From a virus (lineage: Duplodnaviria > Caudoviricetes): a DNA stretch of 26,788 nt. Under the pieces are notes generated by a model that worked only from the letters and a program-made list of their open reading frames with translations, searched no databases and was not told the origin of the DNA. Where the stretch lies: the IMG/VR virus record IMGVR_UViG_3300014202_000240, positions 1 to 26,788 of that record. One strand, given 5' to 3'. Position 1 is the first letter of the stretch. Every line of letters starts with the position of its first letter. Below are positions 6,095 to 24,074 of the stretch, one piece after another. The position numbers and the translations under genes are program-made.

Positions 6095-6105
6095 ACAGTT
6101 GTTAA
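6095..6105 (-). promoter_or_regulatory. TTAACAACTGT motif, putative late promoter
   Basis: Overlaps the TAA stop of the endonuclease gene; upstream of the fibre cluster. Confidence 0.65.
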
Positions 6106-7493
6106 TTTGAATAAATCAATTTAACTTTACCACAATCCCAAATCCTTGATAATCCATCTAGGGTAGCGTGTTGTAGTTCAGTCATACCCAAAGGAGTATT
6201 AACTACGTCTTTTCTTCTTGATTGTTTACTAAGTACTTGTTTTTTATAAGTATTATAATAGAAATAGTCTGGAGGTATTATGTAATCTAACTTCCAACCA
6301 GCTTTTATCCAATTATCCTCGTTCGTCCAACGATAATCTATAAAGGTAGAAAAAGCTCCATGTATTTTGTAAGCATATGAACATAATTTAGATAGACCAC
6401 CGACAACATTTACTCCAGATTTCATAACAAATCGACTCAAAGTTAGCTCTGAACTATCTCGATGGTGTTTAGAAATAACAATAAGACCTTGTAATTCTTC
6501 GTTATGATATAATCCATACGACTTAGGAGCAATATATGTGTCTAGTATATGGTATCTAGATAGAAATTCTCTAGCTTCTAATGACTCAACTTCTCTAACT
6601 TCACAGTTTCTAGCGTATATTCGTTCAGTATTCTTATGTAGAGCTGATTTTATAAAAGATTTAACTTGGTTTTTCTTCTTTTTCCATTCAAAATCAAAGA
6701 ATTGTAATAACTTATAGCCACGTTCTTTAGCTTTTTGACGTTTTAGATTATGATACTCACGCCCTACTCTGTCTTCTGTATGCCACATACATCCATGATA
6801 CTCAATTCCTATACCTAATTCAGGGATAAATATATCTATTTCATGAGGATGTATTATACTTCTACTATTTCTTACAACTTCAAATCCTAAACTTTCAACA
6901 AAACTACATAATTCTAATTCTTCACTAGAACCAACATAAGATAAAACATCTCCATATTTCTCTATTAAAGCAAAAGTTCGTTCAAATATAACTCCAGTTC
7001 TATCTTTCCATTTATACTTCCTATCTTTTCTAGTATATGTATCTGAAAGAAATTCTGCTCCTTTTGATCTAGCAAATTCCTTCACTTCTTCTATTGTTAA
7101 TGATGTTTTTAATTGACTTAACCTTTCTTTTTTTTCATGAGGAGACCATTGACCTCCAATAATAGAATCCCAAGTCTTTTCAAAGTATCTACCTTTAGAA
7201 TCTAACCATTTATACTTAGCTTTATTTCCAATATATTCAGTAGATAAACACTTACCTCCTTTAGACTCTGCCTTTTTGTGTAACATTTCTATTGTGGTAG
7301 TTGTTAGCTTTTGTTTTTTAACTTTAGCTCCATGCTGTTTTGACCAGCGACCACTTTTAATAGAATACCATGCAGCATACCATTGATTACCGTCTGCATC
7401 TTCCCATAAGTATTTATGGTGAGAGTTCACATAAACATCAGAAAGACATTTACCTCCTTTGGATTCTGCGTGTTTTTTCAATTCTTCTATCAT
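6102..7493 (-). CDS. Hef-like free-standing homing endonuclease (N-terminal repeats, Vsr/PD-(D/E)xK-like nuclease, GNAT-like C-terminal domain)
   Basis: Three SKGGKCLSxxY-type repeats; EIDIFIPELGIGIEYHGCMWH; IYARNCEV...LSRF...VVGGLSKL...RIWDCG. Confidence 0.75.
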   Translation of the reverse strand: MIEELKKHAESKGGKCLSDVYVNSHHKYLWEDADGNQWYAAWYSIKSGRWSKQHGAKVKKQKLTTTTIEMLHKKAESKGGKCLSTEYIGNKAKYKWLDSKGRYFEKTWDSIIGGQWSPHEKKERLSQLKTSLTIEEVKEFARSKGAEFLSDTYTRKDRKYKWKDRTGVIFERTFALIEKYGDVLSYVGSSEELELCSFVESLGFEVVRNSRSIIHPHEIDIFIPELGIGIEYHGCMWHTEDRVGREYHNLKRQKAKERGYKLLQFFDFEWKKKKNQVKSFIKSALHKNTERIYARNCEVREVESLEAREFLSRYHILDTYIAPKSYGLYHNEELQGLIVISKHHRDSSELTLSRFVMKSGVNVVGGLSKLCSYAYKIHGAFSTFIDYRWTNEDNWIKAGWKLDYIIPPDYFYYNTYKKQVLSKQSRRKDVVNTPLGMTELQHATLDGLSRIWDCGKVKLIYSN

Positions 7494-15106: not shown

Positions 15107-17115
15107 TATCCCATTGTCCTTGGTTCTAGATTTGGATTAGGTAATAAACTTGGGTCTACGCTAGGTTGATCTGGTATAGATGCTTCTGCAGGAGCTTGAG
15201 GCCCCATGTTTTGTTGTCCTAGTACCTCACCAGTATTACCTTGTTCTAGACTTGCTTGTTGAGGGCCGGGAGGCATTTCGGGATTACCTTGTTGATCCAT
15301 AGGATTTAAAGGTTGTTCGTTAATTAATTGTAGTAGGTCTGGATTCACATTTCGAAGCATATCAATATGTTCTTGAATATGATTTTGTACTTTAGATAAA
15401 AGTTCTGGATTTTGTCTAAGTTCTGGATCACTAATTACCGCTCGGTGTTCCATGATATGCATTCTATGCTGATCTAGAATATTAGCAAATACATCTTTAC
15501 CTTCAAGTAACCATTCGTTTTCACGTTTGATTAATAGTAAGTCAGCCATATCACCTTCGAACATTGAATCTAATCTACCGGTCTCCATAACCATAAAATA
15601 TTGTTGTGGATTTTTAAGTAGGTTCATCTGAGCCAATTGTTGAGCCATTTCAACACGACCAGCAATTGTTCTAGATAATGGATTACCAACATCAACGACA
15701 ACTCGTTTAATGTCTTTAATCATATCACCTTTAAATTCTTTAAGAAGTGATTTTTTATTCTTTCCAACTAAAGTAATAAGCTTAGGAGTATCAGCAAAGT
15801 CTTTAAGAATTTCAATAAGAGTTGTTCCAATATTTTCTAAGAATGTAACATATGACTTTTGGAATCCGGATTGAAACTGTAGTGACATAGACTGTACTAA
15901 AGCTAATGCGTTTCCTGAACGTAAGGATGCTTCTGGATTACCTCTTGTTACAGAGTTTACACCAACTTGAGTTTCAGCTAATTGCTCTAAAACTTTAACA
16001 AAATTAAATACTTCTGGAGCAGTAGATGTTAATTGAACTGCCTCTGGTTTAGCGTTACCTTCCATGATATTCATACCACCTTCAACTGAAGCGATATTTA
16101 AATCAGAACCTCTAGGAACAAAAATACTTTGTACCATGAAAGCGTTTTGATTTGTCATAATACCAGAGTATAAAGAGTTTAATGCTTCTTGTAAAGGGAA
16201 TACATCAAACATATCAGTATATCCATAAGGAGTTCCCATGATATTAGCAGGAGCTAATCTAAATATAGGGATCGTTCTGTATGGAAGATCGAAATCTATT
16301 AGTATAATCTCTGGAGTAATAAACTGAATATATCTACCTTCTGGTAGAGCTTCTGACCTTTTATGATAGAATTCATAAACCATAATGTCATCAGTATCAT
16401 CGTTAGAAAACATTCCAAGTTTAGTACTTGAATAATTATTCTTTGGTTGAATTTGAGCTAACTTATCTGCATATTCTGGATACTTAGCAATTAGATTATA
16501 CTTATTAATTGCTGTTCTAGTTAGAATCCATTCATGATTCCATCTTTCTTTAGTGCCATCGACAACCACATCTAAAGGACTTAGAATAGAAAATTCTAAT
16601 TCTCCTTCATGATTTGGTTCATTTGTTTCTGGATCGTAATCGTAGATTTCTCCAGCAGTTGCATTCCATCCCATTTTAATATAAGACGAACCTAAAACAA
16701 TCGCCATTTCAACAGCTTCGTTTACTGCTTCTTCTAATCCCTTTTCTCTCATATAGTAATCAAGAATACCGTTAGCTAGGTATGTTTGAGACATTGATTT
16801 AAAGTCTGAATTGACAGCTCTAGCTTCCATAATAGGTCTATTCGCTGTAATCATATTGTAGATATTTCTAGCTAAGTTTCTGAAATGGTTAACTGGTAGT
16901 TTTACAAGTTCACCCTGTTCACCAGCAAAAGTAATTTGATGATCGCTATCTAGTCCATGGTTAAAGTTACCATAGTAGAAGTGATACATATCTGTAATCT
17001 TCTTTAAATACGAGTTTGATCTCATTGTATTAAAGAATGATTCACCTTTCTGTAGTAAATTAGATGTACATTTTTTAGCCTCTTGGGCTGCAAAGTAAAC
17101 TTGACTATCCGACAT
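15106..17115 (-). CDS. Portal protein
   Basis: 669 aa, downstream of terminase; GSSYIKMGW, PYG..DVFPLQEALN, GVNSVTRG; Pro/Gln-rich tail. Confidence 0.85.
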   Translation of the reverse strand: MSDSQVYFAAQEAKKCTSNLLQKGESFFNTMRSNSYLKKITDMYHFYYGNFNHGLDSDHQITFAGEQGELVKLPVNHFRNLARNIYNMITANRPIMEARAVNSDFKSMSQTYLANGILDYYMREKGLEEAVNEAVEMAIVLGSSYIKMGWNATAGEIYDYDPETNEPNHEGELEFSILSPLDVVVDGTKERWNHEWILTRTAINKYNLIAKYPEYADKLAQIQPKNNYSSTKLGMFSNDDTDDIMVYEFYHKRSEALPEGRYIQFITPEIILIDFDLPYRTIPIFRLAPANIMGTPYGYTDMFDVFPLQEALNSLYSGIMTNQNAFMVQSIFVPRGSDLNIASVEGGMNIMEGNAKPEAVQLTSTAPEVFNFVKVLEQLAETQVGVNSVTRGNPEASLRSGNALALVQSMSLQFQSGFQKSYVTFLENIGTTLIEILKDFADTPKLITLVGKNKKSLLKEFKGDMIKDIKRVVVDVGNPLSRTIAGRVEMAQQLAQMNLLKNPQQYFMVMETGRLDSMFEGDMADLLLIKRENEWLLEGKDVFANILDQHRMHIMEHRAVISDPELRQNPELLSKVQNHIQEHIDMLRNVNPDLLQLINEQPLNPMDQQGNPEMPPGPQQASLEQGNTGEVLGQQNMGPQAPAEASIPDQPSVDPSLLPNPNLEPRTMG

Positions 17116-17864
17116 TAGTATACCTCTAAAAATCTTTTTAAGTGTCTAAGTGGAACTAAGTAAGCATCGTCAACAACTCTAGTAGAGCCTGCAAATAAAA
17201 CACCAACAACATTTCCATATTTATTAATAACCGGACTTCCAGAGTTTCCTCCGTAGCTAGTTACAGAAGCTTGCATCGAATAATAAGATTCAACACAAAT
17301 TCCTTCTATATTATAAAATTCTTTTAAAAAATCATTACTTATCCAGTTACCCTTACATGTACTTTTATCATAACCAGATATTAATTCAATAACTTGATTA
17401 CCGATATACTCACCTTTCTTCACAACTAAAGGTCTTAGATTTGGATGTCCAACTAAAACAATATCTTCACCTACATCAACTGAAGAAGCAATATCTAATC
17501 CCTTTTTACCTACAATAGGTTCTACTAAACATAAATCATGATCTTCATATTTTTGGATAATTCTTCTTGGGATTGGTCTAGGAAGACTGGATGATGAAAC
17601 ATCGACGTATCCGTCTTTAGAGATTTCACAAACATGTCTATTTGTTACAATATACACAGTTCCTGATTTAGCTTTGACATGAAATCCAGTACCGCCATTT
17701 ACTCTACCACCGTTATCTTTACTAATCATAACAACTTGATCACCAGTACTATACCGATAATAAGCATCTTTCAGATTAGGAGCAGAAGCTACAAATCCAA
17801 AGACCACAATAGTTGCAGCGACAGTTTTTACTAATGATTTCAACTTTTTAGCTATCTTGGACAT
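17115..17864 (-). CDS. Trypsin-like (S1) serine protease with N-terminal hydrophobic anchor/signal
   Basis: Catalytic triad motifs TNRHVC, HDLC, GGNSGSP; GTGF; N-terminal VAATIVVFGFVA. Confidence 0.9.
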   Translation of the reverse strand: MSKIAKKLKSLVKTVAATIVVFGFVASAPNLKDAYYRYSTGDQVVMISKDNGGRVNGGTGFHVKAKSGTVYIVTNRHVCEISKDGYVDVSSSSLPRPIPRRIIQKYEDHDLCLVEPIVGKKGLDIASSVDVGEDIVLVGHPNLRPLVVKKGEYIGNQVIELISGYDKSTCKGNWISNDFLKEFYNIEGICVESYYSMQASVTSYGGNSGSPVINKYGNVVGVLFAGSTRVVDDAYLVPLRHLKRFLEVY

Positions 17865-21546: not shown

Positions 21547-22086
21547 TCAGTACATAAGAGCTATTCCTTTATTACTTTTCTGTATTAGCTGTTTCGTTTC
21601 ATTATTACAAGCGTATACAGGATAGATGTACTTGCTAGTATAATTCTCTATTACGAAGGTATTAGCTTCTTTAATCGTATTGAATACTCCTACTGGCTTA
21701 TACTCATAACGTTTATTTACTAAGTATACGATTACATACTTACAGTCGTAAGTTACTCTTGTTACCACTTTATATTCTAGTGGCGGTCTTGTTTCTATAT
21801 ACTCTTTATATCCTAATTCTTTAAACTTGTCTTTCCAATACTGAACATGTAGTTTACGTGTTTCTATATCTTCCATTACTTCTAAAACTTCTATTTGAAG
21901 CTTATCAAAGTCTTTAATCATCTCTTTACATTTGAATGTACCTATGTCTAATTCTTTCAGAATAAGGTCTATTGCTGTTAAGAATCTACTAGTCTGACTG
22001 ATGTATATCTTTTTACTAGAATCGTTTCTAATGGCGTATATTACGCTTTTAGGAAGGTGTTTTAATTCGTTTAATAATGACCTCAT
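21547..22086 (-). CDS. Degenerate GIY-YIG nuclease-fold protein
   Basis: VIYAI...KIYISQT...IEVLE; SD GAGG. Confidence 0.55.
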   Translation of the reverse strand: MRSLLNELKHLPKSVIYAIRNDSSKKIYISQTSRFLTAIDLILKELDIGTFKCKEMIKDFDKLQIEVLEVMEDIETRKLHVQYWKDKFKELGYKEYIETRPPLEYKVVTRVTYDCKYVIVYLVNKRYEYKPVGVFNTIKEANTFVIENYTSKYIYPVYACNNETKQLIQKSNKGIALMY

Positions 22087-22203: not shown

Positions 22204-22364
22204 AATATTAAACTTGATATTAGTAAGTGAGTGTAATTAGGTAGGGTTAATGATTTTGTATATTTGAGAGGTGGTGAAGGTGAATGTTTCTATATTTAGA
22301 ATAGTTTATAGGATGTGTAGACCATGGACACCTTTGTCAGCTTTGATTGTCCCATACCCCCCTA

Positions 22365-22472
22365 ACACACACGCATTATACCCGCACGCAGGTTTTAACG
22401 CACACGCATACGCACAGGCGCACGCACCTACGCACACACACGCATCACGGGTATCTAACGCACGTACGCACG
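22365..22472. repeat. CGCA/CA alternating purine-pyrimidine low-complexity tract
   Basis: Twelve CGCA copies in ~100 nt within an AT-rich genome. Confidence 0.85.
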
Positions 22473-22547
22473 TTTCAACTATCTTTAAAACATCGCTTGA
22501 CCAACTATCAGGCACTTAGCTCTAAGCTATTGATATCTAATACGGTG

Positions 22548-22594
22548 GTGTCATAACGATACTGGATAGTGTCACATTGACTATACTGGTGTCA
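22548..22594 (+). repeat. Three GTGTCA direct repeats at 21/20-bp spacing
   Basis: Copies start at 22548, 22569, 22589. Confidence 0.7.
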
Positions 22595-22658
22595 TACTGC
22601 ACCTACGAGGTTTCAATGGGTTATACGATGTACTACGTGATTACGAGGGGTTATAGAG

Positions 22659-23096
22659 TTGGCATGGGCTATGCAATACCACTAAACAGAACGGTTGACG
22701 GTAACGTGTTGACTCAACGCACTTGATGCAATGAGTTGGCACGCTACTTGCTACAACCAAAACAGTGATTGACCACGATACAATGTAATTTTTACAACGT
22801 ATCTTGTGACATTACTGAACTGCTGGTAACATCAGTATGACGGTATCTGATAAGCTTAAATGATACGTAGCGGTCGTTATACGACGTGCTTAATATCTAG
22901 TAGCAATCGTGATTATGTCTGATAAGTTGGCACGCTATTTGAAATGTAAAAAACGAGATTCAACCGACAAGTAAAAACGAGTTGGCATGAATCTTGAAAC
23001 AAAGAAAAGCAGTAATGCTGACAAGCGAAAGTGAGTTGGCACGAATCTTGAAAAGGAATTTAAGAGATAAGCAATCAAGTTGGCATAGGAATTGCT
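22659..23096 (+). promoter_or_regulatory. Array of six sigma-54 (-24/-12) promoter-like sites
   Basis: TTGGCAY sites with GG-N10-G[CA] at 22659, 22736, 22927, 22982, 23036, 23080; the 22736 site TTGGCACGCTACTTGCT is perfect consensus. Confidence 0.8.
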
Positions 23097-23105
23097 AACA
23101 AGATT

Positions 23106-23486
23106 GTAGGTGAAATCGAACACCTTACCAAAAAATACGATAGACATTTATTAAAACTAACAACGTGTCCGATCGAGCCGTAAACTCGATAAGCGTTGCC
23201 CTAAGTCTAAGAAGTTCTCTCGGGGTCGGAGTATTGAGAAGAAGTGAGCACCAAATAGGTGTGAGCTGTATAAGAGCGTAGGAATCATATTAAGCAACTC
23301 CACGCACGTCCACTTATACAGTATTAAGCGAGTTACGTGTAGCCGCCTCTTGTAGTATTACGCTACAGTTGTGCCATGACCGCCTGACAAAAAATCAGGG
23401 ATAACCGCCGAACTCAGTATCGCTAAGGCGTGAACCATTAGGTTAGACGAACAGTCTTTAATTCCGAGATGATCGGGTACTGAGTA
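23106..23486 (+). ncRNA. Putative large structured RNA / early leader
   Basis: Raised GC, no convincing ORF, more than ten consecutive helices including a five-way junction. Confidence 0.6.
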
Positions 23487-23571
23487 GAACGAAACAGACA
23501 TTTAGCCCTAGGCGTAATGCGTCTAAGGGCTATCTGTTTGTCGATAGGTATGTGCCTATCCTGACGAGTTC
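23487..23571 (+). ncRNA. Type II hammerhead ribozyme, predicted cleavage after GUC at 23542
   Basis: Stem II GAAC/GTTC; GAAA 23491-94; stem III CAGACA/TGTTTG; UC 23541-42; stem I GATAGG/CCTATC; CTGACGA 23561-67. Confidence 0.9.
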
Positions 23572-23583
23572 AATGAGGTTTAT

Positions 23584-23796
23584 ATGAAATATAGAGATGT
23601 ATCTAAACCTAAAGTAAAAAAGCCTAAGTTAAAACAAATACATAGAGTAGTAATAGAGTCTGATGACATTGAGGTCATTGAAATGATTCTATCGAATTTA
23701 AAGTATATGTACGTGGATTATGAGGCAGATGAACTTGATTTAAAGATAAACAAAATTGTCGATAATCTTAATATAAAAACAATACAGAGGATATAA
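23584..23796 (+). CDS. First early hypothetical protein
   Basis: SD GAGG 23575-78. Confidence 0.75.
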   Translation: MKYRDVSKPKVKKPKLKQIHRVVIESDDIEVIEMILSNLKYMYVDYEADELDLKINKIVDNLNIKTIQRI

Positions 23797-23798
23797 TC

Positions 23799-24074
23799 AT
23801 GAATAAAATACCACGATTCCTACGATCTAAGCTTAATGCTGAGAGTAAAGCTAAACGAGCGTCTAAACGTGATACAATAACTTCTAGTTATATTGTGTCG
23901 GGTAACACTAAGGATGAGTTTGCTAAAGAGAATAAGGTTAAGAAGCACCATGGTAAGTGGAAAGAAGTTAGCCCTCTGCCTTTGAATAGGTCTGCGGTTG
24001 CTAGACATGCGTATCTTAAACGTAAGGCTAATGCTCCGAGTAAGGTTACTTGGACGTGTCCTGTGAGGTATTAA
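23799..24074 (+). CDS. Basic hypothetical protein
   Basis: SD GAGGA; K/R-rich. Confidence 0.65.
   Translation: MNKIPRFLRSKLNAESKAKRASKRDTITSSYIVSGNTKDEFAKENKVKKHHGKWKEVSPLPLNRSAVARHAYLKRKANAPSKVTWTCPVRY

Follow-up and report, generated by a model that had tools for sequence, protein, structure and literature searches.

A sigma-54-type promoter array, an ORF-free RNA and a hammerhead ribozyme at the head of the early genes of an uncultured lake phage and its relatives

Between the leftward genes of an uncultured lake phage (terminase, portal, capsid and endolysin) and the small ORFs without an assigned family that run rightward from position 23584 lies a 1.5-kb gap, and the question raised by this locus is what the phage keeps there. 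The window analyzed here is the whole 26.8-kb virus record (26,788 nucleotides), and positions refer to it unless another locus is named. The gap, bounded on the late side by a conserved 179-aa ORF (21547-22086, minus strand) that served as the anchor for finding relatives, is the region of the promoter boxes, ORF-free RNA and hammerhead ribozyme described below. By capsid and terminase searches, the window groups with a large family of phages, uncultured and about 85 kb in size, from which 79 loci were collected by capsid and 61 and 80 by terminase. The sole named relative is a Silvanigrella aquatica phage (34% identity in the terminase, 30% in the capsid); since the cassette is absent from it, it does not establish the host. 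No prophage was found in GTDB, and a GTDB scan for an enhancer plus boxes showed no enriched lineage among the 80 of 121 matches listed. Close variants of the window are present in lake-water DNA runs, and all four of the runs compared consist of DNA contigs. The leftward strand also carries an HNH-type endonuclease gene directly after the capsid gene (6102-7493) and, with terminase and portal on either side of it, a gene for a trypsin-like protease (17115-17864).

The six co-oriented -24/-12 boxes put forward by an earlier, sequence-only reading of this DNA are all present on the plus strand. They lie at 22660-22675 (box 1, predicted +1 at 22686), 22737-22752 (box 2, 22763), 22928-22943 (box 3, 22954), 22983-22998 (box 4, 23009), 23037-23052 (box 5, 23063) and 23081-23096 (box 6, 23107), and counting along the sequence bears out the start near 23107 that had been predicted from the last of them. 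The boxes follow the sigma-54 signature TGGCAC-N5-TTGC with its fixed spacing; the -12 element is the canonical TTGC in boxes 2 and 6, ATGC in box 1 and TTGA in boxes 3-5. With at most one mismatch allowed, the -24/-12 pattern occurs 11 times in the window against 4.8 expected, all five exact matches fall within the array, and the 8-mer AGTTGGCA has six copies in the whole window, every one of them in the array. The enrichment extends to the family: in 23 non-redundant regions, drawn from 59 anchored on the 179-aa ORF after removal of short and duplicate ones, the early strand holds 46 boxes and the opposite strand 11, as opposed to 0.95 per strand (maximum 4) in shuffled sequence. Both the promoter and the IHF pattern had been relaxed once the data were inspected, and the null consists of 2-mer shuffles, so the size of these effects outweighs their exact figures.

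Upstream of box 1 stands an arrangement that the sequence-only reading had overlooked, namely an array of enhancer-like palindromes with IHF-like boxes. Three imperfect GTGTCA-N3-TGACAC palindromes (22548-22603), spaced 20-21 bp, are candidate enhancer sites for an activator, or else iteron-like repeats. One IHF-like box (22523-22535) matches the E. coli consensus exactly in its reverse form (PMC7962754), another with one mismatch (22611-22623) lies between the palindromes and box 1, and a degenerate copy is seen at about 22641-22653. Palindrome, IHF box and -24/-12 element at box 1 share the order and spacing of bacterial sigma-54/IHF promoters (PMC7962754, PMC11841059), and an IHF box between enhancer-like array and promoter is found for box 1 only. 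Among the 23 family regions, similar palindrome arrays occur 30-200 bp upstream of a sigma-54 box in six (0.02 in shuffles) and an IHF-like box lies upstream of a sigma-54 box in 12 (0.005 in shuffles), at a distance of 17-20 or 28-30 bp in 11 regions and of 49 bp in the window. No sigma-54 gene was found in 32 family genomes and no activator scored over the cut-off in the same 32; both would therefore be supplied by the host. PilR was considered as the activator and rejected on palindrome spacing: the window's TGT-N7-ACA differs from the TGT-N11-type hallmark of PilR (PMC6058289) and from the NmpR site. Dependence on host sigma-54 has a precedent in Pseudomonas phage YuA, for which the available accounts describe one mapped sigma-54-like promoter (PMC5053324; bioRxiv 10.1101/2023.10.13.562163), as opposed to the six tandem boxes with IHF-like and palindromic sites that head the early operon of this family.

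No sigma-70-like site was found on the plus strand between 22086 and 23700, nor any terminator in the same interval. Without a terminator between the boxes, nested upstream RNAs of 436-857 nt are predicted. The single fixed RNA of about 435 nt from the last box, as first proposed, therefore finds no support: the predicted RNAs are nested, and the enhancer/IHF anatomy serves box 1. Nor does the run of hairpins begin exactly at 23107, as had been stated, since stable hairpins already occur inside the promoter array (80-nt windows 22940-23019, 23030-23109 and 23060-23139, with z of -5.2, -4.2 and -5.8). Two repeat-encoded hairpins with an AA/GA internal loop (22954-23041, plus strand) lie just past the predicted starts of boxes 3 and 4, and the -24 elements of boxes 4 and 5 form their 3' arms. 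The two hairpin copies differ by one compensatory change.

Tandem boxes could have another use, which would be to act as a sponge or roadblock for the host sigma-54 polymerase, or as sites of some other protein near a genome end, with no more than one or two of them firing. This is consistent with TTGA at the -12 position of three of the six boxes, with a second box cluster of mixed orientation beside the poly-C run of relatives, and with a close variant that appears to be one repeat unit short, as a loose contig end suggests. It also accords with the abundance of such boxes elsewhere: about 1,200 viral stretches hold tandem sigma-54-like boxes, and only one of 128 sampled loci (48 of them short) gave a hammerhead call, a weak one, so that tandem boxes are common in viral contigs and have no general tie to hammerheads. 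The strand bias of 46 to 11, the phased IHF-like boxes and the palindrome arrays speak against it, as does the lack of any other promoter type on the plus strand of the interval scanned. We consider this reading improbable, and it is in any case compatible with the RNA part of the explanation that we prefer, in which the boxes launch transcription.

Several side observations touch the same ground. A poly-C run followed by ACGCAC-type repeats occupies 22350-22470; relatives show a poly-C or poly-G run with sigma-54-like boxes of mixed orientation, and many contigs break nearby. On account of these homopolymer runs and breaks, 22350-22470 may be a genome end. Viral contigs of about 11 kb (L022, L041, L042, L075, L076, L096, L097 and similar ones) carry tandem sigma-54-like boxes near their ends, and three of them have boxes at both ends, as in inverted terminal repeats.

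Downstream of the array, the complete hammerhead claimed earlier has all parts of the core and a local fold with z of -5.8 (23487-23571, plus strand). Stem II is formed by 23487-23490 paired with 23568-23571; GAAA (23491-23494) and CUGACGA (23561-23567) make up the core in agreement with the CUGANGA/GAAA/NUH rule; stem III spans 23494-23541 and stem I 23543-23560. The cleavage triplet is GUC (23540-23542), and the cut is predicted after C23542, between 23542 and 23543. Loops close off stems I and III and stem II is open, which defines a type II topology, here with a long stem III. The predicted cut precedes the ATG at 23584 by the 41 nt originally given. Stem II reaches a probability of 0.8-0.98 when folded locally, as opposed to 0.05 in the 23107-23600 transcript, where the active fold is 2.6 kcal/mol less favorable than the minimum; in a transcript from 22954 the active fold is the minimum. 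Hammerhead cleavage leaves a 2',3'-cyclic phosphate and a 5'-OH. By this established chemistry, the products would bear these ends provided that the window ribozyme cleaves. No 5' ribozyme (twister, pistol or second hammerhead) was detected in the window by Rfam or descriptor. A Shine-Dalgarno-like GAGG follows the ribozyme at 23575-23578 (plus strand). Unmasking of the ribosome-binding site by cleavage was considered and rejected: the Shine-Dalgarno element is predicted to be paired before the cut and in part after it.

The closest known counterparts are the hammerheads described in Perreault 2011, which include type II ribozymes and clusters flanking prophage genes, together with the hammerhead of haloviruses HF1/HF2, which an early transcript carries 13 nt ahead of its first ORF and whose cut coincides with a mapped 5' end (PMC3088659). 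The window's ribozyme shares with them the core, the type II topology and the placement before or around genes. Unlike them, it has no evident pseudoknot, a long stem III and no RF02276 score. On inspection, the loop I sequence UAUGUG has no 4-base complement in the 3' tail; such a loop I/3'-tail pseudoknot is found in most, though not all, type II hammerheads (PMC3088659). Neither at gathering nor with E relaxed to 10 did the Rfam model RF02276 match the window hammerhead, for which the long stem III is probably responsible; the relatives L260 and L005 pass it. A further difference is that the ribozymes of Perreault 2011, as far as the accessible text describes them, flank genes or gene blocks, and here they flank ORF-free structured RNAs (PMC3088659).

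What, then, does the cut serve? The main rival to a released functional RNA is a natural insulator and nothing else, in which the hammerhead would trim six nested transcripts to one protected end and the upstream RNA would be a by-product that shields the ribozyme fold. RiboJ-type insulators (PMC5737548) are engineered and come without a functional upstream product. As in RiboJ, the hammerhead sits between promoter and ribosome-binding site and would give one defined mRNA 5' end. A role in mRNA processing was proposed in Perreault 2011 (PMC3088659). Hammerheads also stand just ahead of several other early genes, both in relatives and in phages that are unrelated (13 loci); several relatives have additional ones ahead of later early genes, and this is a known habit. 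As an observation apart, L004, L007-L012 and L014-L016, which are other phage contigs, carry type III hammerheads just before an ATG, with stem I and its loop nearly as in the window.

The modest folding of the window RNA and the lack of a homologue also agree with the insulator. The shortest predicted released RNA has 436 nt (23107-23542, plus strand), a longest ORF of 38 codons and a GC content of 44% against 34.5% for the window. Its core is not significantly stable: 23107-23487, without the hammerhead, has an overall z of -1.34 with 12 of 100 shuffles equally good (-1.22 on repetition), and the z of -4.1 for the full stretch is contributed largely by the ribozyme. Three of five sub-windows, chosen by hand, are moderately stable (z of -3.05, -2.62 and -2.29) and the other two reach -0.56 and -0.86. 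The sub-window at -2.29 corresponds to a predicted five-way junction of a closing helix and four hairpins (23412-23485, plus strand) that adjoins the hammerhead. No homologue of the window RNA was found in INPHARED (blastn) or in the fetched loci (blastn, nhmmer), nor by a junction-helix pattern run over 429 loci. Rfam models (GOLLD, ROOL, RAGATH, group II domains, riboswitches) gave no match in the window, and the tRNA/tmRNA scan was empty. A permuted group II intron, RNase P and tmRNA, each suggested by likeness in short motifs, were rejected for want of a model match. The window RNA is a singleton.

It bears some likeness to an RNA of relatives that we term class A. A C-AAAUA-G hairpin (23248-23262) and a long stem (together 23248-23330, plus strand) look like the class A RNA's first two helices; the window RNA and class A both carry this hairpin with an adjacent AAGAGCGU, and in the window RNA the hairpin is followed by a stem and AGAGCGU, both motifs having been picked by eye. 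C-AAAUA-G hairpins number 6 in 6.9 kb of RNA from the slot, against a background of 0.0056 per kb. The class A covariance model gives the window RNA only 7.2 bits (E 3.7, rank 5 of 17, not significant), for which reason we leave it out of the class. A search with a class A DNA pattern returned seven loci, of which three were already known and four were taken on inspection as chance matches in coding DNA.

The divergence of close variants of the window counts in favor of the explanation preferred below. A contig of run X4 differs from the window at 5 of 538 bases and by one gap over 23046-23583 (about 1%), and another X4 contig at 44 of 583 bases and by 35 gap positions over 22400-22987 (about 7.5%), a significant contrast (Fisher p 1e-8). 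It is left unexplained by an insulator with a by-product leader, and recombination could be an alternative source of it. Among the variants listed within the RNA, three (23114, 23307 and 23437) lie in loops of the predicted structure, 23127 leaves its pair intact, 23153 and 23158 are unpaired in the predicted fold, and 23142 and 23164 disturb predicted helices, the C>G change at 23164 (run X7) breaking a predicted stem unless compensated. Only 23437 recurs in three runs, and its site is in a loop of the five-way junction. The first early ORF (23584-23796, plus strand; 70 aa, no family) is cleanly absent in a close variant, in which the second (23799-24074, plus strand; 91 aa, basic, no family) directly follows the hammerhead.

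Absence of a conserved linkage in relatives would have spoken against the sequence-only reading; instead, sigma-54-type boxes, an ORF-free RNA ended by a ribozyme and a first early gene recur family-wide. In the terminase tree, 18 of 27 ingroup relatives have one or more ribozymes in the slot, one has a contig that ends at the first box, and eight show no hammerhead by descriptor, a weak negative since twisters were not searched systematically there. Two further ribozyme-bearing relatives (L401 and L416) come from the capsid set. The loci L005, L332, L401 and L416 are like the window, with box, RNA, a single type II hammerhead and ATG, and the predicted distance from cut to ATG is 30-93 nt in 16 relatives.

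Ribozymes at both ends of the RNA, as a two-ribozyme circle would need, are lacking in the window and present in 12 relatives, where each is a hammerhead or a twister. The pairs are type II and type III hammerheads in L248, L252, L320, L392 and L260, two type II hammerheads in L269, L272, L280 and L302, a twister and a type III hammerhead in L257, and two twisters in L255 and, by homology and by eye, in L246. The twister-P1 matches in Rfam (two in L255, and L257) have E values of 2e-12 to 1e-6 and are below gathering. In the 10 of 12 loci measured, the piece between the ribozymes is 262-472 nt long with a longest ORF of 14-43 codons, and the core folding z of the 10 doubly flanked RNAs measured ranges from -0.8 to -4.2. 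The predicted excision of a gene-free RNA by two ribozymes whose classes vary by lineage points to RNA maturation rather than mRNA trimming.

The RNAs in the slot form sequence classes without mutual matches, and these classes track the terminase clades of a quick tree. The class A RNA (L248:6271-6581, minus; L320:3690-3973, minus; L252:1354-1616, minus; L392:921-1359, plus; and, in part, L291) lies between two hammerheads, contains a conserved AGCGUCC helix and is uncatalogued; another feature is a helix that, we presume, resembles a tetraloop receptor. Outside the ribozyme, 25 of its 44 pairs are changed on both sides, a count reached by 0 of 500 shuffles and by slid controls only to 2-7, in four sequences with the structure derived from the same alignment. 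The class C RNA (L255:2268-2634, minus; L246:6138-6457, minus) lies between two twister-P1 motifs, in the loci that stand closest to the window by terminase. When folded pairwise, class C has 13 of 51 pairs double-changed and class D 14 of 49 (two sequences each, without controls), and class B, which is too uniform, has 3 of 56. All these counts rest on two to four sequences and on structures taken from those same alignments. Covariation among homologous loci, suggested earlier as a check, is seen in class A, and no homologue through which the window's own RNA could show it was found. Rfam at gathering on the loci of nine relatives returned ribozymes only, and classes A, C and D amount to at least three families of structured RNA that are uncatalogued.

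A basic ORF of 90 aa, marked by a conserved NGH(Y/F)MK motif, stands directly before the class A RNA (L248:6625-6897, minus; homologues in L392, L291, L252, L257 and L320), and its product is a candidate RNA-binding partner. This ORF has no detectable homologue in the window and no usable ESM Atlas hit, and a scan for it found six loci, all known already.

An insulator with a by-product leader does not explain the ORF-free RNAs between two ribozymes in 12 relatives, or their covariation, and we regard it as unlikely, if still a serious contender. The preferred reading is a free RNA, because message trimming hardly accounts for two-sided excision of an RNA that holds no gene and covaries. Another conceivable function is one in which the folded leader would be a put-like cis antiterminator, acting on the transcribing polymerase and later discarded by the hammerhead. 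Its place at the head of the early operon, the hairpins right after predicted starts and a shared GACAA(G) motif that follows 8 of the family's 46 boxes are in line with this. However, cleavage by the 3' ribozyme would free the RNA ahead of transcription of the first gene, the region showed no terminator, and in class A a gene precedes the RNA, which makes antitermination highly improbable. The product ends suggest yet another fate. RtcB ligates such ends into a circle, and an RtcR-like activator senses cyclic phosphate. The doubly flanked RNAs of relatives would bear the 5'-OH and cyclic-phosphate ends required, and one family genome, L432, encodes a full RtcB RNA ligase (G028:82576-83706). 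Nevertheless, the window RNA, having no 5' ribozyme, would begin with a triphosphate, only 1 of 32 genomes has RtcB, and Perreault 2011 found no circles for tandem hammerheads (PMC3088659); circularization by RtcB, or signaling to an RtcR-like activator, has in our view a very slim chance.

Based on the above data, we propose that the region is the start-up cassette of the phage early operon. The host sigma-54 polymerase, aided by IHF and by a host enhancer-binding protein as activator, would start at one or more of the boxes. The hammerhead would cut after 23542 during transcription, so that the message acquires a uniform 5'-OH end capped by the stem I hairpin and a folded non-coding RNA, bearing a cyclic phosphate at its 3' end, is released. 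The order of box, RNA and hammerhead, together with the folded RNAs in the same slot of relatives, makes it likely that a free-standing RNA is released early in infection, and we presume it to be stable. The freed RNA would act alone, and the most plausible role for it is that of a decoy or scaffold to which a host protein binds. Of all the steps, the decoy role has the least support; what suggests it is an RNA that is not tied to the message, codes for nothing, is the first to be made and is replaced in each lineage like early anti-host genes. For the chain as a whole, from sigma-54 start through hammerhead cut to a free decoy or scaffold, we judge the chances to be slightly better than even.

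The sequence-only reading knew of no described phage with this combination. Our literature search (subscription papers and supplements aside) likewise found no account of ORF-free phage RNAs excised by ribozymes and none of early enhancer-IHF-sigma-54 arrays in phages, and the word ribozyme does not appear in the YuA transcriptome preprint (bioRxiv 10.1101/2023.10.13.562163); each part, however, has a precedent, in phage hammerheads and in YuA. Some of these ribozymes could be among those aligned in Perreault 2011 and Weinberg 2017. As in GOLLD and ROOL, the RNAs are several hundred nucleotides long, multi-helix and phage-associated (PMC5737381); unlike these, they have no Rfam match, their folds are lineage-specific and they are bounded by self-cleaving ribozymes. 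The role of bacterial and phage self-cleaving ribozymes has been called largely elusive (PMC6765202). The cassette is conserved as architecture, and two-sided excision, seen in relatives and not in the window, is its new element: what is new is a family-wide slot for lineage-specific, ribozyme-excised structured RNAs. Tentatively, and with rather more doubt than belief, we suggest that the family keeps this first early slot for a free folded RNA, using interchangeable ribozymes and a launch by host sigma-54, IHF and enhancer, with the lineage-specific folds acting as anti-host RNA effectors, a counterpart of early anti-defence proteins. The promoter anatomy suggests that the start-up of a whole phage family is tied to a host sigma-54 activator and hence to the state of the host.
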